A DNA stretch of 64,000 bases, from the NCBI GenBank assembly GCA_030390025.1, contig CM059432.1, positions 12,896,001 through 12,960,000 of the forward strand, in the 5' to 3' direction. The DNA comes from Squalus acanthias. Its lineage: Eukaryota. The position numbers and the translations under genes were made by a program. Shown in pieces: positions 8,130 to 61,546 of the stretch (position 1 is its first letter; each line of letters begins with the position of its first letter). Below the pieces are notes generated by a model. The model saw nothing but the letters and a program-made list of their open reading frames with translations, did not search any database and was not told the origin of the DNA.

Positions 8130-8935
8130 TATGGCTTCAATCTTCCCAATGTTTAACTTGAGTAAATTATGGCTCATCCAGTACTGGATATCAGGCAAGC
8201 AGTCTGACTGCACAGAGGCAATATAAACATACGGAAAATGGCAGACAGGAACAGACCTACTGTAGGAGTTGAGAGAGGTGGTGGAGAAGTAGACCTGGGT
8301 GTCATCAGCATAGATGTGGAAGCTGACCCCATGTCTGTAGATGATGTCGTCAAAGGGGAGCATGTAGATGGGGAAGAGGAGAGGGGACCAAGTAAAGATC
8401 TTTGAGGAATCCCAAAGGTAACGATGCTGGGGTGGGAAAAAGAAAAGAAAGACTTGCATTTCTATAGCGCCTTTCATGACCACCGGACATCTCAAAGCGC
8501 TTTACAGCCAATGAAGTACTTTTTAGAGTGCAGTCCCTGTTGTAATGTGGGAAACACAGCAGCCAACTTGCGCACAGCAAGCTCCCACAAACAGCAATGT
8601 GACAATGACCAGATAATCTGTTTTGGTTATGTGATTGAGGGATAAATATTGGCCAGGACACCGGGGATAACTCCCCTGCTCTTCTTCAAAATAGTGCCTT
8701 GGAATCTTTTACATCCACCTGAGAGAGCAGACGGGGCCTCTTTTTCATCTGAAAGATGGCACCTCCTAGAGTGCAGCATCCCCTCATCACTGCACTGGAG
8801 TGTCAGCCTAGCTTTATGTGCACATGTCCCTGGAGTGGGACTTGAACCCACAACCTTCTAACTCAAAAGGTGAGATGTGCTACCCACTGAGCCACAGCTG
8901 ACACTGTAAGGAAGAGAAGCCATTGCTGGAAACAC
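8130..8935 (-). mobile_element. L2-clade LINE RT fragment, interrupted by a SINE
   Basis: ORF 8013..8495 contains PLLFPIYMLPFDDIIYRHGVSFHIYADDTQVY (YADD motif) and LKLNIGKIEAI. Confidence 0.85.
8438..8904 (-). mobile_element. tRNA-derived Deu-domain SINE (SacSINE1-like)
   Basis: tRNA-like head with A box tggctcagtgg and B box ggttcaagtcc, Deu-like core (caggtggatgtaaaagat..cctggccaatatttatccctcaa), tail ggcgctatagaaatgcaagtctttc. Confidence 0.9.
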
Positions 8936-11293: not shown

Positions 11294-12035
11294 GGCCCAG
11301 AAATTAAAGACGGAGCCTTCGTGCGGGGGTAAGGCTTCCCCGTGATATCTCACTGCGCGCCTGCCTTTTCATTCCGAGCTCGCACGAACTTGAGTTTCTA
11401 GATAGCAGCTGTGCAGTGCTTCCGTATCCCACAGACGCAGTTAATTCGTGCGAGCTGTGGGATCACGTGATTCAGTTACAGCCAATGGCAGCACACCATC
11501 TTTCATTCATAGTTTTCAGAGCAAGGGCTGTGAAAGCTATGAATCTATACCCCCCCAAAAGAACAGCTAAACCTCAATTAAATTTTAAAAAAAACATCAC
11601 ATTCATAAAATAAGTATAGTTAAATAAATTAACCACTTTAAACAAAAAATTAAATTTTTGAAAAAATTTAAAATCTTTTAAAAAGTTATAAAAATAAACT
11701 TACCTTTCTTTAAAGTCTCTAAAAAAGATATACCTGTTGAAAAAAATTCAAAATAATACTTAATTAACTACTTACCTTGTTAAAAGAGGGTCTTACGCCT
11801 CCTTTCTTTATGTGCAAAATCTTCCATGCTTACCTGCGCGTTCAAAGCACTAAGTGCACTGCGTGCGCGCAGCCTGTAGCGCGCACGCGGTTCACTTAGA
11901 AACCGCCCCCTTTTGAAATCACCAAGTGCCGGTTTTCAGCGCATGCGCAGTGCATGCAGAAAACCGGCAATTGGAGACAGAATACGCGAGAGTACACAGT
12001 GCGTACTCTCGCGTAGCAAGACTAATTTTTGGGCC
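11294..12035. mobile_element. Harbinger-type MITE, local family A, copy 1
   Basis: TIRs ggcccagaaatta / taatttttgggcc with 3-bp flanks AAT/ATT. The CR1 host is restored on removal. Homologous to the copies at 48598 and 50043. Confidence 0.88.
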
Positions 12036-12645: not shown

Positions 12646-12982
12646 GAGCTGGATTTTCAATGACCCGTGGAGTCGGGTTTGGAGGCGTGTGGGGGGTTAA
12701 AGTTGCAGATTCGGGGGTCCCGACCCCATCCCGCCTCCAACCTGCCTCCATGCAATTTTGATGAAATCGTGTGCAGTGTTCCCGACTCCGTCCCGCCTCC
12801 AAGAGGCGGGAGAGGCCATTAAAGCCCTTAACAAGCCCTAAATTGGCTCTGTAATGCCATTTTGAAAAGTTTTAGCTAGTTTAACCCTTTTCCGACGTGA
12901 AGCACGCCTGATGTGAAACACGCCTGTGAAACCTGGCGGGAGCACAATGACCTCAACTCGACCCCAAGACAAAATCTAGCCC
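12646..12982. mobile_element. Harbinger-type MITE, local family B, short or chimeric copy
   Basis: Termini gagctggattttc / aaaatctagccc. The first ~300 bp closely match the left part of 22115-22797. Confidence 0.85.
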
Positions 12983-15281: not shown

Positions 15282-15489
15282 CTCAATTAATTAATTAATT
15301 AGTTTTTTAAAATTTGGAATACGTATATCTTTTAATCTACACCAAGGCACTTAAATTTAGATGCCCAAGTTTGGAAAAAAGCGAGAAATAGAGAAATACT
15401 CACCAACCAATCACTTACCTGCTTTCTGATGACGTCAGACTTCAATTACTTTTTACTTCCTTACACTCACCGGTCCGTTGCAGCCCCGG

Positions 15490-16406
15490 CTCACCTTTAA
15501 ATCACCCGAGGTCTCGCGCTCTCGCTCACCATTTAAATCACCCGCTGAGGTCTCGCGCTCTTGCTGATCTTTAAATCACCCGCCAAGGTCTCGCGCTCTC
15601 GCTCACCTTTAAATCACCAGAGGTCTCGCGCTCTCGCTCACCTTTAAATCACCCGCTGAGGTCTCGCGCTCTCGCTCACCTTTAAATCACCCGCTGAGGT
15701 CTCGCGCTCTCGCTCACCTTTAAATCACCCGCTGAGGTCTCGCGCTCTCGCTCACCCTTTAAATCACCCGCTGAGGTCTCGCGCTCTCGCTCACCTTTAA
15801 ATCACCCGCTGAGGTCTCGCGCTCTCGCTCACCTTTAAATCACCCGCTGAGGTCTCGCGCTCTCGCTGATCTTTAAATCACCCGTTGAGGTCTCGCGCTC
15901 TCGCTCACCTTTAAATCACCCGCCGAGGTCTCGCGCTCTCGCTGATCTTTAAATCACCCGCCGAGGTCTCGCACTCGCGCTCACCTTTAAATCACCCGCT
16001 GAGGTCTCGCGCTCTCGCTCACCTTTAAATCACCTGCCGAGGTCTCGCGCTCTCGCTGATCTTTAAATCACCCGCCGAGGTCTCGCGCTCTCGCTCACCT
16101 TTAAATCACCTGCCGAGGTCTCGCGCTCTCGCTCACCTTTAAATCACCCGCTGAGGTCTCGCGCTCTCGCTCACCCTTTAAATCACCCGCCGAGGTCTCG
16201 CGCTCTCGCTCACCTTTAAATCACCCGAGGTCTCGCGCTCTCGCTCACCTTTAAATCACCCGCTGAGGTCTCGCGCTCTCGCTCACCTTTAAATCACCAG
16301 AGGTCTCGCGCTCTCGCTCACCTTTAAATCACCCGCTGAGGTCTCGCGCTCTCGCTGATCTTTAAATCACCCGCTGAGGTCTCGCACTCTTGCTGATCTT
16401 TAAATC
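15490..16406. repeat. Tandem array of a 38-bp unit, about 24-25 copies
   Basis: Unit tttaaatcacccgctgaggtctcgcgctctcgctcacc with 35-39 bp variants. I counted 25 occurrences of tttaaatc by eye. No spacers. Confidence 0.97.
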
Positions 16407-30864: not shown

Positions 30865-31740
30865 AAAGAACATAGAAACAGGACCAGGCCATTCAGCTTC
30901 TGGAGCCTGTTCCACCATTCATAGAAACATAGAACATAGAGAAATAGGAGCAGGAGTAGGCCATTCGGCCCTTCGAGCCTGCTCCGCCATTCAATATGAT
31001 CATGGCTGATCCTCTATCTCAATACCATATTCCCGCTCTCTCCCCATACCCCTTGATGCCTTTTGTGTCTAGCAATCTATCTATCTCCTTCTTAAATATA
31101 TTCAGTGACTTGGCCTCCACAGCCTTCTGTGGTAGAGAATTCCACAGGTTCACCACCCTCTGAGTGAAGAAATTTCTCCTCATCTCAGTCCTAAATGTCC
31201 TACCCCGTATCCTGAGACTGTGACCCCCTCGTTCTAGACCCCCCCCAGCCAGGGGAAACATCCTCCCTGCATCCAGTCTGTCTAGCCCTGTCAGAATTTT
31301 ATACGTTTCAATGAGATCCCCTCTCATTCTTCTAAACTCTAGTGAACGCAGGCCTAGTCGACCCAATCTCTCCTCATACGACAGTCCTGCAATCCCAGGA
31401 ATCAGTCTGGTGAACCTTCGCTGCACTCCCTCTATGGCAAGTATATCCTTTCTTAGGTAAGGAGACCAAAACTGCAGACAGTACTCCAGGTGTGGTCTCA
31501 CCAAGGCCCTGTATAACTGCAGTAAGACATCCTTGCTCCTGTACTCAAATCCTCTTGCAATGAAGGCCAACATGCCATTTGCCTTCCTAACTGCTTGCTG
31601 CACCTGCATGTTTGCTTTCAATGAGATCCTTGATGTAGTTACCTTGTTTCTCACCCCTTTCCTTCTTAAATAATGGATTGACATTTGCAATTTTCCAATC
31701 CAAAGGCACAATTCCTGAGAGCTTTGCAAAATTGTGACTA
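30865..31740 (-). mobile_element. Cluster of CR1 3' fragments, including a young copy at about 30921-31619
   Basis: ORF 31019..31816 contains an open ORF2 C-terminus, nearly identical to 40744-41455. Confidence 0.9.
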
Positions 31741-34078: not shown

Positions 34079-34944
34079 GAGATGAAATTCAACTTCATGA
34101 AAAGCAAGGATCTATTGTTTCTCTTCAAAAGAAGAAGCCCGATATTGCCTGCATTAATAATTGGTAACTGCCTGGCAGAATAGTATCTATGATGTTGTTG
34201 GACATCGAAACAACCTGAAATGGGTCCGTCAAAGTGCACATAGGAAAGGCCAGTAAAAAGTTACTTCATTTAATCTGTGTGAAGAAACCGAACCTGCACT
34301 TAGTTGACCTTGTATTGGTTTCCAAATCTGTCATAACTCTTCTTTACCGTACACATGTGTGACAGTATATATAGAATGTAAATATTAAGACGGTAAGCAT
34401 TCATATTTTACAATGTTATGTTTCCACATGCATTAAGAATTAAGTTACAGTAAAAGTATTCTCAGAGAGTAATGAGATAAATGTGATACTTCCCATAATA
34501 ATCTCTTAATATTTTTTAAAGACGTTGATAGCTGCCATAAAGATGAAGGAGAAAAGGTTTGCAGTCAGGTGAATAGTGTGTTTTAATTGCCCTTTGAGCC
34601 AAATTCTCCTCGCCTGCCTTAAAAATGCTCTTCCCCTTTCACTCCGTTGACAGCCACAGTGACTGACATTAGAACAGCTAATTATAGAGTTTCTTTGGCA
34701 AAGTTTGATTGGCAGATGGGACAACAAGATACTTCCTCTAACTTCAGCCAGATTAATCCTAGACAAAAACTAATAAATGTGTGATTGACTTGCTTTCCCT
34801 AGCTACGTTTCTTTGAGCTTGTGGCAATTTTGAGAATATGGCGACTACAATCCTAAATCCTTGGTAACGTGAATAATGAGGATGCTTTAGTTATGTGTTG
34901 AATCTTAGAGCGAGGTAGTGATCCTCCTATTTGTGATACTCTAT

Positions 34945-35320
34945 CTTCTTCTTCTTAGGCAGTCCTTCGGAACCCAGGATGACTCGCTTTCACACTAAAA
35001 ATGAGTTCTCAGGTGACTGATGAGTCCAATGCGGGACCTACAGTCTCTGTCACAGGTGGGGCAGACGGTGGTTGAAGGGGCGGGTGGGTGGGGTGCTTGG
35101 GTTGACGTGCGTTGCTTGCGCTTGGCTTCCGCTTGCTCCTGGCGAAGAGACTCGAGGTGTTCGGCGCCTTCCCGGATGCTTCTCCTCCACTTTGTGCGGT
35201 CTTGGGCCAGGGATTCCCAGGTGTCAGTGGGGATGTTGCACTTTTTCAAGGAGGCTTTGAGGGTGTCCTTGAAGCGTTTCCTCTGCCCACCTGGGGCTCT
35301 CTTGCCGTGCCGGAGCTCCA
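34945..35320 (-). mobile_element. RTE-clade LINE 3' fragment
   Basis: ELRHGKRAPGGQRKRFKDTLK..WESLAQDRTKWR..CPTCDRDCRSRIGLISHLRTH, (AAG)n tail, 9-bp TSD atactctat (34936-34944 and 35321-35329). Confidence 0.92.
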
Positions 35321-37551
35321 ATACTCTATACCTCGTGTACTAAAGCAAGGATTATTTCTGTCTAAGGGCGAGCAAATATCAAATTAAGCAATGTGATTCT
35401 GTGAAAATTATATTGAATACGATATTTTGGTTATGGATGGTAATAAAAAAGCAAATTATCTGGATTGTACACAGAGTGAAATATTTCCTTTTCTTATACC
35501 TCAAAAATTATTTTCATTCATACTGTAATTATGTCAGATGTTCCAGCTGGACTCAGTAATGTGGCAGTCAAGATATGGATATGGGCGGCACAATTGAAGC
35601 CTGCCCAGAACCAGAAACATTAAATGGACCCCAGTATACATGGGTACCAAACACCAACCGAAAACAGAAAATAAATTTGATTCAATTTAAAAGATATTAA
35701 TCTGAATATTAAATGGGGACAGGGCTTACAAGAAACAAATTCTAGTTGAAAAAAGGAATAATTTTCCTAGAAATAACAGACAGAAATTACAATTGAAATA
35801 ACCTATTAATCAAGACTCCCCATTACCATCATAATACCAGAAAACATAAGAACATAAGAACACAAGAAATAGGAGCAGGAGTAGGCCATTTGGCCCCTCG
35901 AGCCTGCTCCGCCATTCAACAAGAGCATGGCTGATCTTCTACCTCAACCCCACTTTCCTGCATTATCCCCATATCCCTTGATTCCCTTAATATCCAAAAA
36001 TCTATCAATCTCTGTCTTGAATATACTCAACGACTGAGCCTCCACAGCTCTCTGGGGTAGAGAATTCCAAAGATTCACCACCCTCTCAGTGAAGAAATTT
36101 CTCCTCATCATAGTTCTAAATGTCCGACCCCTTATTCTGAGACTGTGACCCCTGGTTCTAGACTTCCCAGCCAGGGGAAACATCCTCCCTGCACCTACCC
36201 TGTCAAGCCCTGTAAGAATTTTGTATGTTTCAATGAGATCACCTCTCATTCTTCTAAACTCTAGAGAATATAAGCCTAGCCTACTCAATCTGTCCTAATA
36301 GGACAATCCCCCCATCCCAGGAATCAGTCTGGTGAACCTTCGTTGCACTCCCTCTATGGCAAGTATATCCTTCCTTAGGTAAGGAGACCAAAACTGTACA
36401 CAATACTCCAGGTGCAGTCTCACTGGGGTCCTATATAATTGCAGTAAAACATCTTTACTCTTATACTCAAATCCTCTTGTAATAAAGGCCAACATACTAT
36501 TTGCATGTTAACTTTCAGTGATTCGTGTACACGGGCACCCAGGTCCCTCTGAACACCAACATTTCCCAATCTCTCGCCATTTAAAAAATACTCATGCTTT
36601 CTATTTTTCCTACCAAAGTGGATAACTTCACATTTCACCACGTTATATTCCATTTGCCATGTTCTTGCCCACTCACTTAGCCTGTCTATATCCCCTTGAA
36701 GCCTCTTTGCATCCTCCTCACAACTTACATTCCCACCTAGCTTTGTATCATCAGCAAACTTGGATATATTACATTTGGTCCCCTCATCCAAATCATTGAT
36801 ATAGACTGTGAATAGCTGAGGCCCAAGCACTGATCCTTGTGGTACCCCACTAGTTACAGCCTGCCAACCCAAAAATGAACCGTTTATTCCTACTCTCTGT
36901 TTTCTGTCTGTTAACCAATCCTCAATTCATGCTAGTATATTAATCCAATCCCATGAGCCATAATTTTGTTTAATAACCTTTTGTGTGGCACCTTATCAAA
37001 TGCCTTCTGAAAATCCAAATACACCACATCCACTGGTTCCCCCTTATCTATTCTGCTAGTTACAACCTCAAAAAATTCTAACAAATTCGTCAAACATAAT
37101 TTCCCTTTCATAAATCGGTCATGACTCTGTCCAATCCTATTATTATTTTCTAAGTGCCTTGTTACCACGTCCTTAATAATAGATTCTAGCATTTTCCCTA
37201 CGACTGATGTCAGGCTAACTCGTCTGCAGTTCCCCGTTTTCTCTCTTCCTCCTTTCTTAAATAGTGAGGTTACATTTGCTACCTTCCAATTTGCAGGAAC
37301 CATTCTAGAATCTATGGAATTTTGGAAAATGACAACCAATGCATCCATTATCTCTATAGCCACCTCTTTTAAAACCCTAGGATGTAGGCCATCAGGTCCA
37401 GAGGATTTATTGGCTTTCAGTCCATTAATTTCTCCAGTACTATTTTTTTACTAATACTAATTTCTTTCAGTTCCTCATTCTCGCTAGAGCCTTGGTTTTC
37501 CACTATTTCCGGGAGGGTTTTTGCGTCTTCTTCCGTGAAGACAGACACAAA

Positions 37552-39320
37552 AGGCTGGATTTTCCCTGCGGAGACGGGATGGTGGCGGGAGAGCTGGTTG
37601 GCGGTTTCCGGTCCCGCTCCCGTCTGCAGCCGCTCTCTGAAATTATTTTCCGTAGATTGGCCTTGTTGAGCCGCCCTGCGGGGTTCCCGGCCAATTAACA
37701 GGAAGCGGGTCTAATGACGTCATTTGATGATGGTCATCAGCTGGTTTCCTTAAAGGGACCATGGCCACATTGATTTTGACAGTTCTGCTGTCAGTGTTCT
37801 ACAGCATTGAGGTGCTGCAAACACTGACAAGCACTGCACAAAGGTGGACAGCTGCACCCAGGCTCTCCCATGACTCCCTCCATATGCTTATGGAGAGAGT
37901 CACAGCACGCAGGGAGTTCTCTTCCTTTCCCATCAGCGGAAGAGACCTCCCCAGGAGACCAACGCAGTCTGGTTGCACATTACACAGGAGGACACAAGCA
38001 GGATGTCGTCAGGAGTGTCTGGCCGCAGTGGCTCCAACCTTTCAATGATCTCAGTAGATCACAAAATGTTACTGCAAAGCCACACTCAAACTCACCCTGC
38101 TGTGCCCCTCATCACATCCCCATCATTCTGTCTTCCATACCCTACTCCTGCACATCCTTACTCACACCAACTTACCTTGCACCTCCACCCATCCCTCTCT
38201 ATCTACATTATCACTTCCCCATCTCACTAGCCAACCCTCACACTCACCCTCATCCTACTGCAAGCATACGAACTAACAACACACAAGAGTAGGTGCCTGG
38301 GTGGTTTAGCCAATGTTCATGTGAAGTTTCTGGTAAGGTGTTGTCATACAGTGAAATCTATATTTTCAACACTTCAACTTATTGGACAGATCTGCGCGCA
38401 CCTTGAGATGTGTCTTACTGAGTTCTAGTGAATGTTGAGACATAACTTCCCGCCCCGCTATAATGATGAGTGTGAAAGGAATGGCTTGGACATTATAGGG
38501 ATGCTTTACGGTGCTGGTGTGGGATGGTATCAACCTGGCGCATCATGTGGCAGCCAGGGTTTACAGCATCAAGTGAAGTAAATCTGGCCATGGTAATGCC
38601 ATCGCTGGCCTCCCGGGCAGCAATGTTGTCAGGGGATGATGTCCTGTGCAGCATCAGGTGATGGCAGAGAAGGTTGGTGATGTTGTTGGTGATGTTGGTG
38701 TGCCTGGTGATGTTGGGGCTGATCGTGGAAGGATTCAGGGGACCAAGGTGTGATTTTTTCAAGGGCACCGATGTTGCTGGAATAGATGGCAGCTGCAGGT
38801 GAGATGACAGAAGCGATCTGTCAATGGAGAGAGAGGTTGTTCCAATGTGGTGGCACTGGACATACAGTTGGCTCTAAACACTTGCAAGCTAAAGAAATCT
38901 CTATATGTTTTACAAATGCAGTAACCAACAGTTTCTGAGCTCTGGAACTGAACAGCTGCAACATGGTATCCTTCATACCAGTTCTGCAGCTGTCAGGTTA
39001 TCAGATAAATCAAAGCAGACAACTCACGACAGGGTGAGCTGGCGTGTTCCCCGAGCAGCGGGTAACCCGTGGGGGAGCACGTAAAATTACACGGTAGGCT
39101 CAAAATAGCATTAAATTGGCTGTTAACAAGCCATTTAATGATCTAAATTGTCTCCCCCGCCTCTTGGTGTCGAGTCAGTTCTACGCAGACAGACCTGACA
39201 CCTGGGAGACTGGCGTGGAGGCGGGGTGACAGCAGGTTTCCTACCCGCTGTCAATCTTTGCTATTTTGACAGCGGACACGCCTCTAAACCCGCCCTCTGA
39301 GCGCTGGCAAAATCCAGCCC
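37552..39320. mobile_element. Harbinger (PIF/Harbinger) internal-deletion derivative, 1.77 kb
   Basis: TIRs aggctggatttt / aaaatccagccc, TSD AAA, a Myb/SANT-like remnant on + and a possible transposase C-terminus on -. Confidence 0.88.
37845..38070 (+). pseudogene. Frameshifted Myb/SANT-like DNA-binding domain of Harbinger
   Basis: Read across three frames: AAPRLSHDSLHMLMERVTARREF / KRPPQETNAVWLHITQEDTSR / DVVRSVWPQWLQPFNDLSRS, which fits a trihelix Myb/SANT pattern. Confidence 0.7.
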
Positions 39321-39871: not shown

Positions 39872-42800
39872 TTCGTGGTCCATGTCGGTACCAATGACAT
39901 AGGTAGAAAGAAGGATGAGGTCCTGCAGGCAGAGTTTAGGGAGCTAGGAAAGAGATTAAAAAGCAGGACCTCAAAGGTAGTAATCTCCGGATTACTCCCA
40001 GTGCCACGTGCTAGTGTGTACAGAAATAGGAGGATAGAGCCAATGATATTGCATGGCTGGAGAGATGGTGCAGGTGGGAGGGCTTTAGATTCCTGAGGCA
40101 TTGAGACCGTTTCTGGGGGAGGTGGGACCTGTACAAGCTGGATGGGTTGCACCTCAACAGAGCCAGGACAAATATCTTTGCGGGGGGCTTTGCCAATGCT
40201 GTTTGGGCGGCGGGGGGGGGGGTTTAAACTAGCTTGGCAGGGGGATGGGAACCTGAGAATAGATTCAGAAGGGAGCGAAGCAAAGCTGAAATTAGAAAGC
40301 AGAAAAGTAGAAAGTGAATTTGGAAGACAGAGGAAGCAAGGGCTAGAAAATAGACAACAAGGGAGTTTGGCAGTGATAATGCAAGGAGTCTAGGGAATAA
40401 GGCAGATGAGCTGAGAGCACAGATAGAAACTTGGGAGTATGATATTATAGCTATTACTGAGACATGGCTGAAAGAAGGGCAGGTATGGCAGCTCAACATT
40501 CCTGGTTACAGGGTTTTCAGACGAGATAGAGAGGGGGTAAAAAAGGAGGGGGGTGTCGCAGTATTGATTAAAGAAACAATTACAACTGTGAGGAGGAATG
40601 ATTTGTTAGAAGGATCATCAAATGAGGCCATATGGGTTGAATTGAAGAACAAAAAAGGGGTAATCACACTGCTGGGAGTGTACTATAGACCCCCAAACAG
40701 TCAGAGGGAGATAGAAGAGCAAATATGTAGGCAAATTTCTGAGAAACATAGAAACATTGGAAAATAGGAGCAGGAGTAGGCCATTCGGCCCTTCGAGCCT
40801 GCTCCGCCATTCAATATGATCATGGCTGATCCTCTATCTCAATACCATATTCCCGTTCTCTCCCCATACCCCTTGATGCCTTTTGTGTCTAGAAATCTAT
40901 CTATCTCCTTCTTAAATATATTCAGTGACTTGGCCTCCACAGCCTTCTGTGGTAGAGAATTCCACAGGTTCACCACCCTCTGAGTGAAGAAATTTCTCCT
41001 CATCTCAGTCCTAAATGTCCTACCCCGTATCCTGAGACTGTGACCCCCTCGTTCTAGACCCCCCCAGCCAGGGGAAACATCCTCCCTGCATCCAGTCTGT
41101 CTAGCCCTGTCAGAATTTTATACGTTTCAATGAGATCCCCTCTCATTCTTCTAAACTCTAGTGAATACAGGCCTAGTCGACCCAATCTCTCCTCATACAC
41201 CGGTCCTGCCATCCCAGGAATCAGTCTGGTGAACCTTCGCTACACTCCCTCTATGGCAAGTATATCCTTTCTTAGGTAAGGAGACCAAAACTGCGCACAG
41301 TACTCCAGGTGTGGTCTCACCAAGGCCCTGTATAACTGTAGTAAGACATTCTTGCTCCTGTACTCAAATCCTCTTGCAATGAAGGCCAACATACCATTTA
41401 CCTTCCTAACTGCTTGCTGCATCTGCATGTTTGCTTTCAGTGACTGGTGTACAAGAAGTGCAAAAACTATAGGGCAGTAATAGTAGGGGATTTCATCTAC
41501 CCTAATTAAACTGGGTTAAAATTAGTGTGAAAGGTATAGAGGGTGCGGAATTCCTAAAATGCATTCAGGAGAACTTTTTTAGCCAGTATGTAACAAGCCC
41601 AACAAGGGAGGGGGCGGTTCTGGACTTAGTTTAAGGGAATGAAGCTGGGAAAGTGGAAGGAGTATCAGTGGGAGAGCATTTTGGTGCTAGTGACCATAAT
41701 TCACTTATATTAAAGGTAGTTATGGAAAAGGACAAAGATAGACCAGGAATAAAATTTCTTAATTGGAGAAAAGCCAATTTTGCTAAGCTGAGATTGGATT
41801 TAGTCAAAGTGGACTGGAAACAGCTACTTGAAGGTAAAACAGTTATCAGAACAGTGGGAGGCATTCAAGGAAGAGATCCTGAGGGTTCAAAGCAACTATG
41901 TTCCCTTAAAGAAAAAGGGTGGGACTTACAAATCTAGAGCTCCCCTGGATGTCAAGGGACATACAGGGTAGGATAAAGAAAAACAAGGGAGGCTTATGAG
42001 AGATACCGAGGGCTCAATACTGCAGAAACTGTAGAGGACTTTGGAAAGTGCAGGGGTGCAATTAATAAGGAAATTAGGAAAGCAAAGAGAGATCATGAAA
42101 ACATTTTGGCAAGTAAAATCAAGGAAAACCCAAAGATGTTTTATAAATACATTAAGAGCAAGAGGATAACTAAAGAAAGAGTAGGGCCTATTAGAGACCA
42201 TAAAGGTAATCTGTGTGTGGAGGCGGAAGACGTGGGTATAGTTCTTAATGAATAGTTTGCATCTGTTTTCACAAAAGAGAGGGACAACACAGACATTGCA
42301 ATCAGGGAGGAGGAGTGTGAAATATTAGATGAAATAAACATAGTGAGAGAGGAAGTAGTAAGGGGCTTAGCAGCTTTGAAAGTGGATAAATCCCAGGCCC
42401 AGATGAAATGTATCTCTGGCTTTTAAGAGAAGCAAAAGAGGAAATAGCAGTGGCCCTGACCATCATTTTCCAATCCTCCCTGGCTACAGGTATGGTGCCG
42501 GAGGACTGGAGGACTGCAAATATTGTACCTTTGTTTAAAAAAGGAGAAAGGGATAGACCGAGTAATTATAGGCCAGTCAGCCTAACCTCAGTGGGGGAAA
42601 ATTATTGGAAAAAGTTCTGAGGGACAGGATAAATCTTCATTTAGAAAGACACGGATTAATCAAGGATAGTCAGCATGGATTTGTTAAGGGAAGGTCATGT
42701 CTGACTAACTTGACTGAATTTTTTGAGGAGGTAACAAGGAGGGACGATGAGGGTAGTGCGTTTGATGTAGTGTATATGGATTTTAGCAAGGCTTTTGATA

Positions 42801-46224: not shown

Positions 46225-46990
46225 GTTCATCGGTGTTGTTTCTGACTCCATCCCTCTCCCTAACATCTATCTGAGGCTGAACCACATTGTTCGCAACCTT
46301 GGTATCATATTTGAACTTGAAATGAGCTTCCGACCACACATCCGTGGCATAACTAAGACCGCCTATTTCCACCTCCGTAACATCGCCCGTCTCCGTCCTT
46401 GCCTCAGCTCATCCACTGCTGTAACCCTCATCCATGTTTTTGTTACCTCTAGACTTGACTATTCCAATACTCGGAGCTCTACTCGGAGCTCCGGCACAGC
46501 AAGAGAGCCCCAGGTGGGCAGAGGAAACGCTTCACGGACACCCTCAAAGCCTCCTTGAAAAAGTGTAATATCCCCACCGACACCTGGGAATCCCTGGCCC
46601 AAGACCGCACAAAGTGGAGGAGAAGCATCCGGGAAGGCACCGAACACCTCGAGTCTCTTCGCCAGGAGCAAGCGGAAGCCAAGCGCAGGCAGCGCAAAGA
46701 GCGCACATCAACCCAAGCACCCCACCCACCCGCCCCTTCAACCACCGTCTGCCTCACCTGTGACAGAGACTGTAGGTCCCGCATTGGACTCATCAGTCAC
46801 CTGCAAACTCATTTTTAATGTGGAAGCAAGTCATCCTCAGTTCTGAGGGACTGCCTAAGAAGAAGAAGACACTCCTAGCTAGCCTCCCACGTTCTACCCT
46901 ACGTAAACTTGAGGTCATCCAAAACTCGGCTGCCCGTGTCCTAACTCTCACCAAGTCCCGTTCACCCATCACCCCTGTGCTTACTGACCT
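46225..46990 (+). mobile_element. L2 LINE fragment split by an RTE
   Basis: VRNLGIIF..AYFHLRNIARLRP..LIHVFVTSRLDYSN, then KLEVIQNSAARVLT..ITPVL. Confidence 0.9.
46473..46868 (+). mobile_element. RTE-clade LINE 3' fragment
   Basis: Highly similar to 34945-35320, with an (AAG)n tail and a candidate TSD atactc/acactc. Confidence 0.9.
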
Positions 46991-48325: not shown

Positions 48326-49493
48326 TGTCAGCCATGGCTCTAAGTCAGAAGGTTGTGGGTTCAAGTCCCACTCCAGAGTCTTGAACACATAATCTAGACT
48401 GACACTTTAGTACAGTGCTGAGGGAGCGCTGCACTGTCAGAGGTGTTGTCTATCAGATGAGACGTTAAACCGAGGCCCTGTCTGCCCTTTAAGGTGGATG
48501 CAAAAGATCCCACGGTACTATTTCAAGAAGAGCAGGGGAGTTCACCCTGGTGTCCTGGCCAATATTTATCCCTCAAGCAACATCACTAAAACAGATTGGC
48601 CCAAAAATTAGTCCCGCGACGCGAGAGTACGCACTGTGTACTCTCGCGTATTCTGTCACCAATTGCCGGTTTTCTGCATGCACTGCGCATGCGCTGAAAA
48701 CCGGCACTTGGTTTTTGGAAAAGGGGGCGGTTCCTCGGTGCACCGCGTGCGCGCTACAGGCTGCGCGCACGCTGTGCACTTAGTGCTTTGGACGCGCAGG
48801 GAAGGACGGAAGATTTTAGAAATGAAAAAAGGAGGAGTAAGACCCACTTTTAACAAGGTAAGTAGTGAATTAAGTATTATTTTGAATTTTTTTTAACAGG
48901 TATATCTTTTTTAGAGACTTTAAAGACAGGTAAGTTTATTTTTATAACTTTTTAAAAGATTTTAAATTTTTTCAAAAATTTAATTTTTTATTTAAAATGG
49001 TTAATTTATTTAACTATACTTATTTTATTAATGTGATGGTTTTTTTTTAATTTAATTGAGGTTTAGCTGTTATTTTGGGGGTGTGTAAGATTCATAGCTT
49101 TCACAGCACGTATGTGAAACTTATGAATGGAAGATGGTGTGCTGCCATTGGCTCTAACTGAGTCACGTGATCCCACAGCTCGCACGAATTCACTACGCCG
49201 GTGGGATACGCAAGCACTGCCCAGCTGATGTCTGGAACATCAAGTTCGTGCGAGCTGGATCTGAAAAAGCCAACGCGGAGTGAGAGATCGCGGGGAAGCC
49301 TTACCCCCGCGTCAACACTCAGTCTTTAATTTCTGGGCCATTATGTCATCGCTGTTTGTGGGAGCTTGCTGTGCGCAAATTGGCTGCCATGTTAGCTACA
49401 TTACAACAGTGACTACACTTCAAATGGGCTGTAAAGCGCTTTAGGACATCCTGAGGTTGTGAAAGATGCTATATAAATGCAAGTCTTTCTTTC
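48326..49493 (+). mobile_element. Deu-domain tRNA SINE split by MITE A
   Basis: Head and core at 48326-48597, tail at 49340-49493. Confidence 0.9.
48598..49339. mobile_element. Harbinger-type MITE family A, copy 2
   Basis: TIRs ggcccaaaaatta / taatttctgggcc with TSD ATT. Confidence 0.92.
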
Positions 49494-49555
49494 AACATTA
49501 TACATTTGCTGTGGCACGTGCCCAAGGATATACGATGATACACCAACGTTACCAA

Positions 49556-49680
49556 AAGTAAAATACTGCAGATGCTGACAATCTGAAGAGTCATTGACCT
49601 GGAATGTTAACCCTACCTTCCTTCCGCCACAGATTCTGCCTGACCTGTCGAGCGTTTCCAGCATTTTCTGCTTTTATTTC
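49556..49680. mobile_element. Degenerate Penelope-type terminal remnant
   Basis: aaaatactgcagatgctg..ctgaagagtcattgacctggaatgttaac..cacagattctgcctgacctg..ttccagcatttt, homologous to 28073-29062. Confidence 0.55.
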
Positions 49681-49860
49681 GCCGGTGTAACTGCTGTATT
49701 CCATATTTATAAACGGGAACGGTCATATTGTAAGCTTTTCTTTCTTTTAAAAAAAATTCTTCTCTTAATTTTCTCCCTTCTTCTCCTGCAGGTGCTGACG
49801 CAGGTTGTGAACAGTCACCATCACTCCCTTACCTAGCCAAAGTTATCATGCTTTATATAT

Positions 49861-51089
49861 GAAAGAAAGAAAGAAAGACTTGCATTTATATAGCGCTTTT
49901 CATGACCACCAGATGTCCCAAAGCACTTTACAGTCAATTAAGTACTTTTGAAGTGTAGTCACTGTTGTAATGTGGGAAACGCGGCAACCAATTTGCGCAC
50001 AGCAAGCTCCCACAAACAGCAATGTGATAATGACCAGATAATGGCCCAGAAATTAAAGACTGAGTGTTGACGCGGGGGTAAGGCTTCCCCGCGATCTCTC
50101 ACTCCGCGTTGGCTTTTTCAGATCCAGCTCGCACGAACTTGATGTTCTAGACATCAGCTGGGCAGTGCTTGCGTATCCCACCGGCGTAGTGAATTCGTGC
50201 GAGCTGTGGGATCACGTGACTCAGTTAGAGCCAATGGCAGCACACCATCTTCCATTCATAAGTTTCACATACGTGCTGTGAAAGCTATGAATCTTACACA
50301 CCCCCAAAATAACAGCTAAACCTCAATTAAATTTTTAAAAAAAACCATCACATTAATAAAATAAGTATAGTTAAATAAATTAACCATTTTAAATAAAAAA
50401 TTAAATTTTTGAAAAAATTTAAAATCTTTTAAAAAGTTATAAAAATAAACTTACCTGTCTTTAAAGTCTCTAAAAAAGATATACCTGTTAAAAAAAATTC
50501 AAAATAATACTTAATTCACTACTTACCTTGTTAAAAGTGGGTCTTACTCCTCCTTTTTTCATTTCTAAAATCTTCCGTCCTTACCTGCGCGTTCAAAGCA
50601 TTAAGTGCACAGCGTGCGCGTAGCCTGTAGCGCGCACGCGGTGCACCGAGGAACCTCCCCCTTTTCCAAAAACCAAGTGCCGGTTTTCAGCGCATGCGCA
50701 GTGCATGCAGAAAACCGGCAATTGGTGACAGAATACACGAGAGTACACAGTGAGTACTCTCGCGTCGCGGGACTAATTTTTGGGCCAATCTGTTTTTGTT
50801 ATGTTGATTGAGGGATAAATATTGGCCAGGACATCGGGGATAACTCACCTAATCTTCTTCAAAATAGTGCCATGGGATCTTTTACGTCCACCTGAGAGAG
50901 AGAGCAGACGGGGCCTCGGTTTAACGTCTCATCCGAAAGACAGCACCTCCGACAATGCAGCACTCCCTCAGCACTGCACTGGGAGTGACAGCCTAGCTTT
51001 ATGTGCTCAAGTCCCTGGAGTGGGACTATGAACTCACAACCTTCTGACTCAGAGGCGAGTGTGCTCCCCACTGAGCCACAGCTGACACT
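49861..51089 (-). mobile_element. Deu-domain tRNA SINE split by MITE A
   Basis: Tail at 49861-50042, core and head at 50787-51089. Confidence 0.92.
50043..50786. mobile_element. Harbinger-type MITE family A, copy 3
   Basis: TIRs ggcccagaaatta / taatttttgggcc with TSD AAT. Confidence 0.92.
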
Positions 51090-52311: not shown

Positions 52312-52728
52312 AAAGAAAGAAAGACTTGCATTTATATGGCTCCTTTCACGACCTCAGGACGTCTCAAAGCGCTTTACAGCCACTGCAGTACTTTTGAAGT
52401 GTAGAAAACATGCCAATTTGCGCACAGCAAGCTCCCACAAACAGCAATGAGATAATCTGTTTTAATGATGTTGATTGAGGGATAAATATTGGCCAGGAAT
52501 AACTCCCCTGCTGTTCTTATGAAATAGTGTTGTGGGATCTTTTACATCCACCTGAGAGAGTAGACAGGGCCTCGTTTAACATCTCATCCGAAAGATGGCA
52601 CCTCCAACAGTGCAGCACTCCCACAGTGTCAGCCTAGATTATGTGTTCAAGACTCTGGAGTGGGACTTGAACCCACAACCTTCTGACTCAGAGGCGAGGG
52701 GTGCTACCCACTGAGCCACGGCTGACAC
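52312..52728 (-). mobile_element. Deu-domain tRNA SINE
   Basis: Head, core and tail present. Confidence 0.9.
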
Positions 52729-53776
52729 TTCAAATTACTACAAATTGCGAGAATAGGAAAGATTCAGACAGCAAAAGGCAAATTTAGGATTGACGTCAGG
52801 AAGCTCTTCTGCACATAAAGAGTGATCAACGCATGGATAGAGCTGCGGAGGCAAAAACCTAAAATTATTCAAGGAGCAGTTGGATCTGCAAAGTGTTTCT
52901 GGATGGATGAACGAAAATAGACTTAGTAGACTTCCTTATCCATATTTCTCTTGTGATCTTGTGGTTGCATAAAAAAAATAGAAACGTAGGTAAAGAATTG
53001 AAAAATATTTGCATGAGTTTCGGTCCGAGAATCACCTGTTATTCGGATAGCTCGGCTCAGCTGGCACAGCTCGGGCAGATTTCTGCCAGGCTGTTAAATG
53101 AAGGCTTTTCATCTTGTGGGAAATGGCAGAGCCTAACATCGCCCATCTTGCCTTGTTTAAATTGTGCCTCCTAGCAGATAATCAGAGAGCAATGGTTGGC
53201 AGGAAGTAGTGGAGAAATAACTTTAACCGCCTCTACCCTCCCAGGGGGGGAAGGAAAGAAGCACGACAGCTTTTGTTAAGATGCCAACAGAACTTGAAAA
53301 AGAAAATGTCGCAAACATGTTGGATACCGATTGCATTGCATAAAGTGCCAATTCTTTACCCAGAACAGTATGCAGTTATCCACTGGATGTCCATTACATT
53401 TAAATACATGCCGCTCCATTACTAAATGGTTCTGAAACTCAAACTTCAGGCTCCAACCTCAGACTGCCACCACTGCACTATTCAGGGTAATATCACACCT
53501 GGCTGGCCACAGCCTCAGACTGTATCCATGCTCATGCAACCTGCTGAAAATAGCAAAAATAAATGTAAAGACTGAGGTTATTATATGTATCGAATAACTA
53601 AATGCATATCTCTGCTTTGTATCAAGAGAGCGTACCTTTGGATTGGATGGTTTCTGAAAATTGAACTACTCGTTATGCCAATCAATGGCTTATTTTTTTG
53701 GAAAATATCTGATCCTCAATCTACACCCTTCGTATAATTATTTGTGAAAACGAAAGAAAGAATTTGCACTTATATA

Positions 53777-55750
53777 GGCCCGGATTTTGCGTAGCTAATA
53801 ACGGCGAGGCTAACAGCGCTCACCGTTATATCGCAGTGAATCGGACAGCAGCTTCCGGAGCCCACACATGCGCAGTTCCAGGTGGAAATCTAGAAGTTGC
53901 TGTCAGAGATACCGCGCTCCTCCACAGGGTGCGCTGCAACAGTCCTCGCCAATAGACTCGCTGCTGAGATCAATGCAACGGCGTGAAGTTCGGGTACTTG
54001 CCCACAAGTTCCCCACTAAAGGCGCCAGAAAAAGTTAGGGCTGGTGCATTCGGGAGTAACTGAATTTTTAACTGCCTGATAATTACTGCAAACAACCACT
54101 CTGGCCCTGAAAATTGAATTTATAAGTGTGGGGTCTCATTCCCTCAGAAGCTAATTAGTGTGCGAGATTTTTTTTTTAAGTCAAAATAATTTTTTGTTTT
54201 ACTTTTTCAGTCTGTCTCTTTTGTCTCTCTCTCTCTCTTAATCCCTTCTGTCTTTCCTAATCATTAATTCACTTTCTGTACATGATTTAAATCTAATTTA
54301 TACTTCCTGGTTTAGACACTGTTGGGGGAGTTTTAACATGGGTGAGCGGATGGGAATGGGTGCGGGTGGGAATGGGTGCGGGTGGGAATGGGTGCGGGTG
54401 GGAATGGGTGAGTGGGTGGAAATGGGTGCGGGTGGGAATGGGTGCGGGTGGAAATGGGTGCGGGTGGAAATGGGTGCGGGTGGAAATGGGTGCGGGTGGG
54501 AATGGGTGCGGGTGGGAATGGGTGCGGGTGGGAATGGGTGCGGGTGGAAATGGGTGCGGGTGGGAATGGGTGAGCGGGTGGGAATGGGTGAGCGGGTGGG
54601 AATGGGTGAGCGGGTGGGAATGGGTGCGGGTGGGAATGGGTGAGCGGGTGGGAATGGGTGCGGGTGGGAATGGGTGAGCGGGTGGGAATGGGTGAGCGGG
54701 TGGGAATGGGTGAGCGGGTGGGAATGGGTGAGCGGGTGGGAATGGGTGCGGGTGAGAATGGGTGCGGGTGGGAATGGGTGAGCGGGTGGGAATGGGTGAG
54801 CGGGTGGGAATGGGTGCGGGTGAGAATGGGTGCGGGTGGGAATGGGTGAGCGGGTGGGAATGGGTGAGCGGGTGGGAATGGGTGAGCGGGTGGGAATGGG
54901 TGAGCGGGTGGGAATGGGTGAGCGGGTGGGAATGGGTGCGGGTGGGAATGGGTGCGGGTGGGAATGGGTGCGGGTGTGGGGGTTAAATGGGCAAAAAATC
55001 TAAGCGTGTCGGGAAGCCGGCTCCAACCCGCCGACTTCCAGGTTTTGACGAGGCGGGACAAGGGGCAGGCAGCCAATCCACTCCCAGGAGGCGGGTCAGC
55101 ATTTTAAGTTTGTTAATAAGGCTAGAAGCCTCGGATTTAACCTGCTTTGCAGGTTTAACTGTTGCCGGCCGGTTTTCCTGAGCTTCGGGAAACCCGGCAG
55201 CTGCAGCAATGCGAGGACAGTCTTGGGGAGCACTCCTTGTAGGCCAGGAGGAGCAGAAGTCCTTTCTCCCACCTCCCCAAGCTCTCCCACCATCAGACAC
55301 CACCCCCCCATACTAAACCCCCCCCCCCAAGGGATCGGAACCGCGCCCCCTCCCCCCCCCCCACCCCAGGGTTAGGGATCGGAGCACCCCTCGGTATTGG
55401 ACACCCCCCCCACCGGGGTTGGGGATCAGATGCCTTCCCCCGGGGTCAGGGATCGGACCCCCCTTGGGATCGTACCCCCCGGGGTTGGGGATCGGACCTG
55501 CTTGGTGCTGTGGCCTCCTCCGGAGCGTTCCCCACCTGACTGAAAGCCAGGCCTGTCAATCAGGCTGACTCCTGGGTGGGGAACCTGTCAATGATGAAAG
55601 ATGCAAGCTTGCGGAGTTAAATCTCCACGGCATGCAGGGAAACCCAGACGTCTGAGCAAGTCGTCGCTCAAAAGCCCACACACACTTTGCGTGCAGCTGT
55701 CAGCGAGGTGAACAGCGAGCGCCGTTCCTTCACCACTGACCGCAAAGTCC
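53777..55750. mobile_element. Harbinger-type MITE (family E) containing a nested family D element
   Basis: Left terminus ggcccggattttgc and a truncated right terminus gcaaagtccg. The nested element starts gggggagttttaac at 54324, and its body (54980-55650) matches 4261-4789 and 7976-8070. Confidence 0.55.
54340..54978 (+). repeat. G-rich minisatellite with mixed 16-bp and 18-bp units
   Basis: Units gggtgcgggtgggaat and gggtgagcgggtgggaat over about 640 bp. Confidence 0.97.
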
Positions 55751-59978: not shown

Positions 59979-60666
59979 TGGCTGTTCCCACTAGTTGATG
60001 GTACAAGGACTAGGGGACACGGATTTAAGGTTTTGGGCAAGAGATACAGGGGGGGCGTGAGGAAAAACTTTTTTACGCAGCGAGTGGTGAGGACCTGGAA
60101 CTCGCTGCCGACGGAAGTGGTGGAAGCGGAGACACAATGTTTTCAAGGGGAGACTAGATAGGCAGTTGAGGGAAATAAACTTGCTGGGCTACGGGGATAG
60201 AGCGGGGGAATGGGACTGACTGGACTGCTCTACAGAGAGCTGGCACGAACTCGATGGGCTGAATGGCTTCCTTCTGTGCCGTTATGACTCTATGGGCTGG
60301 ATTTTGATACTGGGGTGGGTTGGGGTCGTGTCATCCAGCCAGCTATAGTCAGCTATCCAAATGTGCTCCAGGTTTCACATTCGTGGTTCAGAACAGGCGT
60401 GCTTCATGTAGAAAAAGGGTTAAAATCACAAAGGCCTTTCAAAATGGCATTATAGAGGCAATTTAGTGCTTGTTAAGGGCCTTAACAGCCTATCCCACCT
60501 CTTAGAGGCGGGACGGAGGTGGGACCAGCAGACACGATTTAATGAAAATTGCGTGGAGGCGGACTTGTGCCCACCCGCCAGTTTTTGCAATTTTAACCCC
60601 CCACATGCCTCCAAACCCACCTCCATGGGTCAATGAAAATCCAGCCCTATGTCTCTATGAATCTAT
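59979..60666 (+). mobile_element. CR1 3' end with MITE B inserted in its tail
   Basis: [22 protein letters not shown] and (actctatg)-type tail repeats. Confidence 0.9.
60294..60647. mobile_element. Harbinger-type MITE family B (inverted, internally deleted)
   Basis: TIRs gggctggatttt / aaaatccagccc with TSD TAT. Confidence 0.9.
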
Positions 60667-61546
60667 GGGGGCAAAATTTGGTTGCTTTGCGCCTCCTGTT
60701 AGCGCCCTAAGAGGGCGCTAATGGGGCGCAAAGCAACTAGCGCCCAGGCGCGGTGATGTTTGCGCCACTCACGAAATTGACCAGACATTTTGCGGCAGGC
60801 GCTAAACACTACCACCGCGATCTCCTGCGCCAGCAGATCGTGACGTCAGTCAAGCGTGCAACGCCCCGGTAGCACCCCGGACCGGATATTGAGTGGCACC
60901 CCCTGCCTTACCGCCTGCCGCTAGCAACGACAGGTTGAGGGGAACGTTTTGCAGTCGGGAAGGGACTGGGGGAACGTTATTTAAAGGCGGCCGCTTCCTG
61001 CCTTTTTTTGTCGGCGACATTTTTGCACCACGCATTCTGAGAGAGAGACTTCCGAGAGATTCAATGCTGTGTGAAGGAGTTTTGGGTACTGAGCTGCACT
61101 TTGCAGGTTCATTTTGATTTGACCTTCCTTGCATCGATTTAGAAGAGACTGTGGAGGCTACACTCTGAGCTCTTTCCCTGGGCCTCTCCATTGTTCTTTC
61201 TAGCAGAATTGATGTACAGGTCTCTCCAGGCTGAGAATCAAGGCTGCAATGAGCAGGGTGGAGAGCAAGATCAACCCTCCCCTTTAAGAACTGGCCGGCG
61301 CCAGTGTGTCTGTGTTCCATTGCTGACTGACATCACATGAGCTTTGCCAGCGCTCTGAGGTAGCGCCTCACTCCTCAGCGTTAGCGCCTTAAGAGAGGTG
61401 TGTCGCGCCTGATTTAGCGCTCCAATCACCTCCAGGGGCGATAGAAGCCAAGTTTGCAGTCGGAGGCGATAATTAGTGCCAGGCGCTAAACTTTGCGCCC
61501 AGCCGATAATTGCGCCCCAAACGGGGCGATACCGAATTTCTCCCCC
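60667..61546. mobile_element. Harbinger-type MITE family C
   Basis: TIRs gggggcaaaatt / aatttctccccc with flanks TAT/CAT. Colinear with 24372-25263. Confidence 0.88.

Follow-up and report, generated by a model that had tools for sequence, protein, structure and literature searches.

Harbinger3_DR of zebrafish is a PHIS-type transposon that produces a 3-bp TSD within a 15-bp palindromic target, and the accessible part of the same report describes local hopping as general among cut-and-paste elements (PMC3016246). Within the PHIS superfamily, the Pangu group is distinguished by an ANT TSD and by TIRs of 11–40 bp starting with AG or GG. Assignment to this group rests on transposase phylogeny, and the 15 genomes listed in the accessible portion of that paper include no vertebrate (PMC4482050). 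Dada transposons generate 6–7-bp TSDs, target tRNA, snRNA and 5S genes and, according to the part of the survey that is available, were undetected in elasmobranchs (PMC8869645). Our literature search, with most subscription papers and Repbase lying outside it, returned no paper on the MITE family described here or on its SINE hot spot, and no DNA transposon specialised on a SINE was found in print.

Here, we describe two MITE copies, M1 and M2, inserted into two SINE hosts, H1 and H2, in a stretch of 64,000 nucleotides of Squalus acanthias DNA (contig CM059432.1), hereafter referred to as the window. The coordinates of the features are listed in Table 1. The two copies are arranged in inverted orientation with a gap of 703 nt, and their alignment contains 733 matches, nine substitutions and two gap columns (a 2-nt indel). 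The original prediction, which was made by reading the letters, had placed both copies exactly, about 700 bp apart and with roughly ten differences. Its claims that the copies share one SINE position and one orientation relative to the SINE, and that their 3-bp TSDs are intact, are likewise confirmed. In the SINE sense both loci read AAAACAG-ATT, the MITE and then ATT-AT, and at both M1 and M2 the ATT is perfectly duplicated directly after AAAACAG, about 270–300 nt into the SINE. The TIRs of M1 and M2 are 13 bp in length (GGCCCA-R-AAATTA, with one base differing). Parsing the TSD as TTA, a reading prompted by the CAGAT-T-ATCTG palindrome, is ruled out by the junctions.

Table 1 Features of the twin insertion and of the third family copy (positions are those of the window)
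Feature	Position	Strand	Basis
SINE host H1, 5' half; tRNA-type head with short internal deletion; subtype ending CATCACTAAAACAG	48326..48594	+	SINE alignment
Left TSD (ATT) of M1	48595..48597	+	alignment
MITE copy M1, 742 nt; 13-bp TIRs starting GG; non-coding; AT-rich middle	48598..49339	+	
Right TSD (ATT) of M1	49340..49342	+	alignment
SINE host H1, 3' half and tail; 11-nt deletion, common to empty copy 52312	49343..49493	+	
Spacer between SINE tails; halves without mutual homology; pyrimidine tract ending CAG	49494..49860	.	
SINE host H2, 3' half and (TTTC)n tail	49861..50039	-	
Inner TSD of M2 (AAT on +, ATT in SINE sense)	50040..50042	-	
MITE copy M2, 744 nt; 98.8% identical to M1	50043..50786	-	
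Outer TSD of M2	50787..50789	-	
SINE host H2, 5' half with complete head; subtype ending CATAACAAAAACAG	50790..51089	-	
MITE copy M3, older, same family; inside CR1-type LINE; TSD AAT/ATT, one mismatch	11294..12035	-	

A third copy of the family, M3, is approximately 90.5% identical to the twins (670 matches and 70 substitutions against M1). It interrupts the reverse-transcriptase frame of its LINE, and the corresponding position of a paralogous LINE near 36930 lacks the insertion. T-AAT precedes the same MITE end in all three copies, and comparison with the empty SINE and LINE sites gives a TSD of ATT/AAT in 3/3 cases, two of which lie at a homologous site. The family copies are thus not confined to one target repeat, with one of the three located in a LINE, and the family is not SINE-specific because M3 sits there. 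An autonomous PHIS partner would share the TIRs and encode a DDE transposase together with a second ORF. The MITE is non-coding, and visual inspection of the 29 window ORFs with at least 150 aa revealed no recognisable transposase.

TSD and TIR features alone set the family beside Pangu as described in the accessible text: the TSD is of the ANT form (perfect ATT in M1 and M2, one mismatch in M3; n = 3, two at a homologous site), and the 13-bp TIRs start with GG (PMC4482050). Look-alike MITEs in the window carry CAT, CAA, TAT, AAA and TAA duplications, so that the ANT pattern drawn from three copies may be a family bias. Relative to strict PIF/Harbinger elements, as outlined in the same partial source, the TWA duplication is replaced by ATT/AAT in 3/3 copies, and the TIRs agree in being short with A or G as the first base (13 bp, starting with GG; PMC4482050). 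ISL2EU elements duplicate 2 bp, AT, within an A|AT|T target; the empty sites here show a 3-nt duplication instead. According to the available part of its description, Harbinger3_DR possesses an AAACAC half-site that agrees with the AAACAG of the SINE at five of six bases, but its core is CWG rather than ANT; in addition, H2 fits poorly at its right half-site and the window is without a transposase (PMC3016246). The recurrence of a DNA transposon at a single base within a multicopy repeat resembles the behaviour of Dada in the accessible account of that group; however, the present family differs in its 3-bp TSD, its site within a SINE body and its member in a LINE (PMC8869645).

The hosts may resemble known SINEs in possessing a Deu domain and an L2-type tail. 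Their tRNA-like head is represented in a paralogous SINE copy at 8440 by an ARAGORN tRNA call at 8826–8897. From the head alone, which is the part that was compared, the hosts look like SacSINE1-type Deu-SINEs; this group, in the accessible part of its description from cartilaginous fishes, is similar in its tRNA-like head, its length of about 460 nt and its high density (PMC5499810).

The near-identity of the MITEs does not extend to the SINEs that carry them. In ungapped columns, 223/259 positions match between the 5' halves of the hosts and 132/150 between the 3' halves, in agreement with the earlier observation that the hosts differ far more than the MITEs. The resulting identity of 86–88%, with indels in addition, compares with 98.8% for the MITEs and corresponds to a host divergence about ten times as high. 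With the hosts included, the inverted repeat covers approximately 1.19 kb at 92% identity (48338–49493 versus 49869–51054), as would be expected if a composite SINE–MITE had been retroposed whole, if the locus were a simple inverted duplication or if it were an artefact of assembly. We regard this group of explanations as extremely improbable: the hosts differ by 12–14% plus indels and belong to different subtypes, the junctions at each copy are unique and the sequences outside both SINEs show no relatedness (best local score 20; shuffled mean 19.8). A composite that moves as a unit, one of the mechanisms offered in the original prediction, is accordingly disfavoured by the roughly tenfold higher divergence of the hosts and by their different subtypes, and the SINE flanks as similar as the MITEs that a simple inverted duplication would leave are not observed.

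Ten SINE copies of the window were aligned, namely H1, H2 and eight others. The other copies had been described as empty at this position from two examples, and all 8/8 of those aligned are indeed without the MITE; the site is kept in seven of them and one has a deletion beside it. H2 clusters with empty copies 8440, 17004 and 58431 (support 93/92, with an open fork) and H1 lies outside this cluster; in the tree of the 3' halves, from which one short copy was left out and in which support is weak, H1 joins 52312 and 62940 (82/83). The occupied SINEs, for which monophyly had been put forward as a point to examine, form no clade in this small sample of ten.

The alignment also bears on homing-like repair, in which a break at an empty SINE site would be mended from the occupied neighbour and the MITE copied together with its TSD. 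Such an event would cover the same site, the same relative orientation, the proximity and the near-identity together, but no co-conversion is seen. H1 carries C at 11 nt and T at 8 nt upstream of the TSD, as do empty copies 26941, 52312, 56838 and 62940, whereas H2 carries A at both positions, as do empty copies 17004 and 58431. The 11-nt deletion of H1 begins 5 nt past the TSD and is present in empty copy 52312 as well. Subtype-diagnostic bases therefore persist 8–11 nt upstream and 3–5 nt downstream of the duplication in both hosts, and near the site the similarity between H1 and H2 does not exceed that of either to the empty copies. A conversion tract would have to stop within 7 nt at one end and within 2 nt at the other. 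The identity extending into the SINE flanks that would mark such a tract is absent, and homing-like conversion between SINE paralogues, which the original prediction had also offered, is in our judgement very unlikely. Within the window, H1 (48326–49493) and the empty copy at 52312–52729, 3 kb away, have in common this deletion of 11–12 nt by the insertion site and several variants in the 5' part. Either a sub-lineage of the SINE or repeated slippage between two ATTATC units would account for the shared deletion.

The outer ends of M1 and M2 themselves enclose 2.19 kb (48598–50786) as a perfectly matched pair of 13-bp TIRs. In principle, this block could move as a composite or its 703-nt spacer could flip; there is no sign that either has occurred. 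Within each host the 5' and 3' halves agree in subtype, and because the two halves share it a net flip of the spacer by MITE–MITE recombination is rejected, with the 3' tree contributing weak support to this comparison.

The twin insertion is real and is most likely an ordinary nested insertion pair, not a new mobile unit. The reading that we favour, with a probability of about 0.68 as judged from the sequence, is that two separate cut-and-paste insertions of PHIS/Harbinger type occurred at a preferred target in pre-existing SINEs, by a local hop or in one burst. M1 and M2 would then belong to a young subfamily within a non-autonomous MITE family of PHIS/Harbinger type, with 13-bp TIRs starting GG and a 3-bp ANT duplication. 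Transposases of this group recognise a loose palindrome about the cleavage point, and one of them, acting in trans, would have put the young MITE into the best ANT site of the SINE. AAACAG-ATT-ATCT is that best match, and insertions of MITEs into the SINE would be predicted to converge on this base. The second event, into the same site of the neighbouring SINE, was probably a short hop in which the donor was kept by replication or gap repair; alternatively, the near-identity may reflect two near-simultaneous insertions from one burst. Retention of the donor by replication or gap repair is established for cut-and-paste elements. The inverted repeat itself would be a by-product of the tail-to-tail SINEs and of the same relative orientation, a one-in-two event. 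We infer the source of the transposase, the local hop, the retention of the donor and any later conversion between the arms.

Target preference was evaluated with a matrix trained on eight other MITE insertions in the window that have paired TIRs and TSDs. Relaxed TIR pairing gave 31 rows, from which the eight sites were picked by eye; the three rows of M1/M2 were dropped and 20 further rows were excluded as duplicates or for lack of the TIR pattern. The MITE at 12646–12982 was excluded from training because of its deleted left flank. The 16 training half-sites have R at -5 in 16/16, A at -4 in 15/16 and Y at -1 in 15/16, giving a half-site of W-R-A-N-W-Y in this window, a pattern similar to the target of Harbinger3_DR (PMC3016246). 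When left out in turn, seven of the eight training sites fall within the top 0.5% of window positions; the site of M3 reaches only the top 11.5%. Since the M3 site is poorly predicted, the matrix derives mostly from other MITE families.

With this matrix, the occupied triplet is the best ANT triplet in each host (1/26 in H1 and 1/36 in H2), and among all host positions the occupied site ranks 3/415 in H1 and 16/459 in H2. Across 24 parameter settings the H1 site comes first in 24 and the H2 site first in 15 and never below fourth. The ranks of the 'same site' in the two hosts are effectively one test, because H1 and H2 are homologous. The motif fits in part: the SINE site has G at -1, which occurs in 0/16 training half-sites, and the score of the H2 site is no higher than the top 3.9% of the window. 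Among the original suggestions was local hopping into a preferred target; support for its target component comes from the top rank of the occupied triplet among the ANT triplets of each host when the matrix is trained elsewhere, and the hop itself is a probable step of the favoured reading. AWT sites that score equally or better number 129 in the window, five of them in empty SINE copies, and 15 lie within about 3 kb. A rough estimate for such a pair from the motif combined with a local hop is 0.05 × 0.06 = 0.3%. This value is acceptable given many copies and the selection of oddities, and it leaves room for a sharper preference specific to the family.

Reuse of repeat sites is also seen with other MITEs of the window. 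Two MITEs with similar TIRs and unrelated interiors (12646–12982, part of whose left flank is lost, and 37552–39320) share the same end coordinate on two paralogous copies of a CR1-type LINE. Two different Harbinger-type MITEs (60294–60647 and 60667–61546) lie 20 nt apart in a LINE-type tail microsatellite, each at a TAT triplet.

A sharper preference could take the form of a young subfamily specialised on the SINE site, with a large share of its copies at this coordinate, in the manner of a safe harbour like that of Dada. Both young copies of the window (2/2) lie at the same base, the general motif yields such a pair at only the estimated 0.3% and the target is kept in 7/8 empty SINE copies, all of which would suit this proposal. 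We nevertheless consider it unlikely, as the older member M3 resides in a LINE, 8/10 SINE copies are empty, other MITE families in the window also reuse repeat sites and the two young copies are neighbours and hence not independent samples.

The substitutions between M1 and M2 are unevenly distributed. Seven of the nine are located in the outer 204 nt and two in the inner 540 nt (scan-corrected P 0.024), and only 13 of the 69 differences from M3 that the twins share lie in the outer part (Fisher P 0.0007, with a boundary picked post hoc). CpG transitions account for only one of the seven outer substitutions. Plain independent decay does not predict such clustering, which could be explained by recent conversion of the inner arms or by a variant template for M2, and the pattern hints at later arm-to-arm conversion. 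In a stronger version, the insertions would be two somewhat older independent events, which subsequent gene conversion from arm to arm made alike over a tract ending where the SINEs diverge; the twins would then look too young. The uneven substitutions, the distribution of shared differences and the paucity of CpG transitions all agree with this version. However, the outer 204 nt are still 96.6% identical and carry derived states relative to M3 that are common to both twins, which implies one young subfamily in any case, and the five outermost changes, all derived in M2, also fit a recombinant or variant template. We hold this version to be unlikely; it would modify the favoured reading of two separate insertions and would leave the choice of site unexplained.

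The original prediction had further proposed that the inverted repeat, if transcribed, would form long dsRNA. The stem is physically trivial for an inverted repeat, and the fold of 49100–50290 gives the expected long hairpin (-816.7 kcal/mol, a value obtained without a shuffle control), which says nothing on function. For transcription the search gave no support: none of the 140 ORFs from unique regions that were scanned (those from 33013 on, of 285 found) matched Pfam, so that no host gene was identified. Rfam gave no matches in the window, metagenome contigs gave none to the MITE-end pattern or to the SINE-site pattern and viral contigs gave none to the SINE-site pattern.

Three AG/GTAAG donor-like motifs are present at MITE positions of about 200–340; they are kept in all three family copies, with one altered in M1, and CTTACC occurs near the opposite MITE end. 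In the spacer, the long pyrimidine tract that ends in CAG (49750–49795) resembles a strong splice acceptor and faces the same way as the donor-like motifs of M1.

On the favoured reading, the locus would add a further example of a hot spot created within an abundant repeat by a target motif of Harbinger type. It also calls for caution: shared insertions of a MITE in a SINE can arise in parallel, and they should therefore be trusted neither as evidence of common ancestry nor as an indication of a composite element. The host range of Pangu listed in the accessible part of PMC4482050 would be widened by a vertebrate PHIS element with ANT duplications. If the young subfamily were truly concentrated at the SINE base, it would constitute a DNA transposon specialised on a SINE and offer a natural setting in which to study the acquisition of site specificity by sequence-reading transposases. 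More speculatively, and in our opinion improbably, a young MITE subfamily of a vertebrate, with ANT duplications like those of Pangu, may have narrowed its targeting to one conserved base of an abundant Deu-type SINE as a safe harbour; tail-to-tail SINEs would then give rise to near-perfect inverted repeats, which would be kept alike by conversion of the arms and could yield long dsRNA.

Several other repeats occur in the window. Two LINE 3' fragments (30920–31624 and 40742–41443) are 96.9% identical over 703 nt and are younger than the other LINE copies. A 380-nt repeat with a (TTC)n end forms an inverted pair (34944–35319 and 46485–46869) of 92.7% identity. Tandem arrays are found at 15489–16406 (38-nt unit, 24 copies) and at 54346–54976 (16–18-nt unit, about 37 copies).
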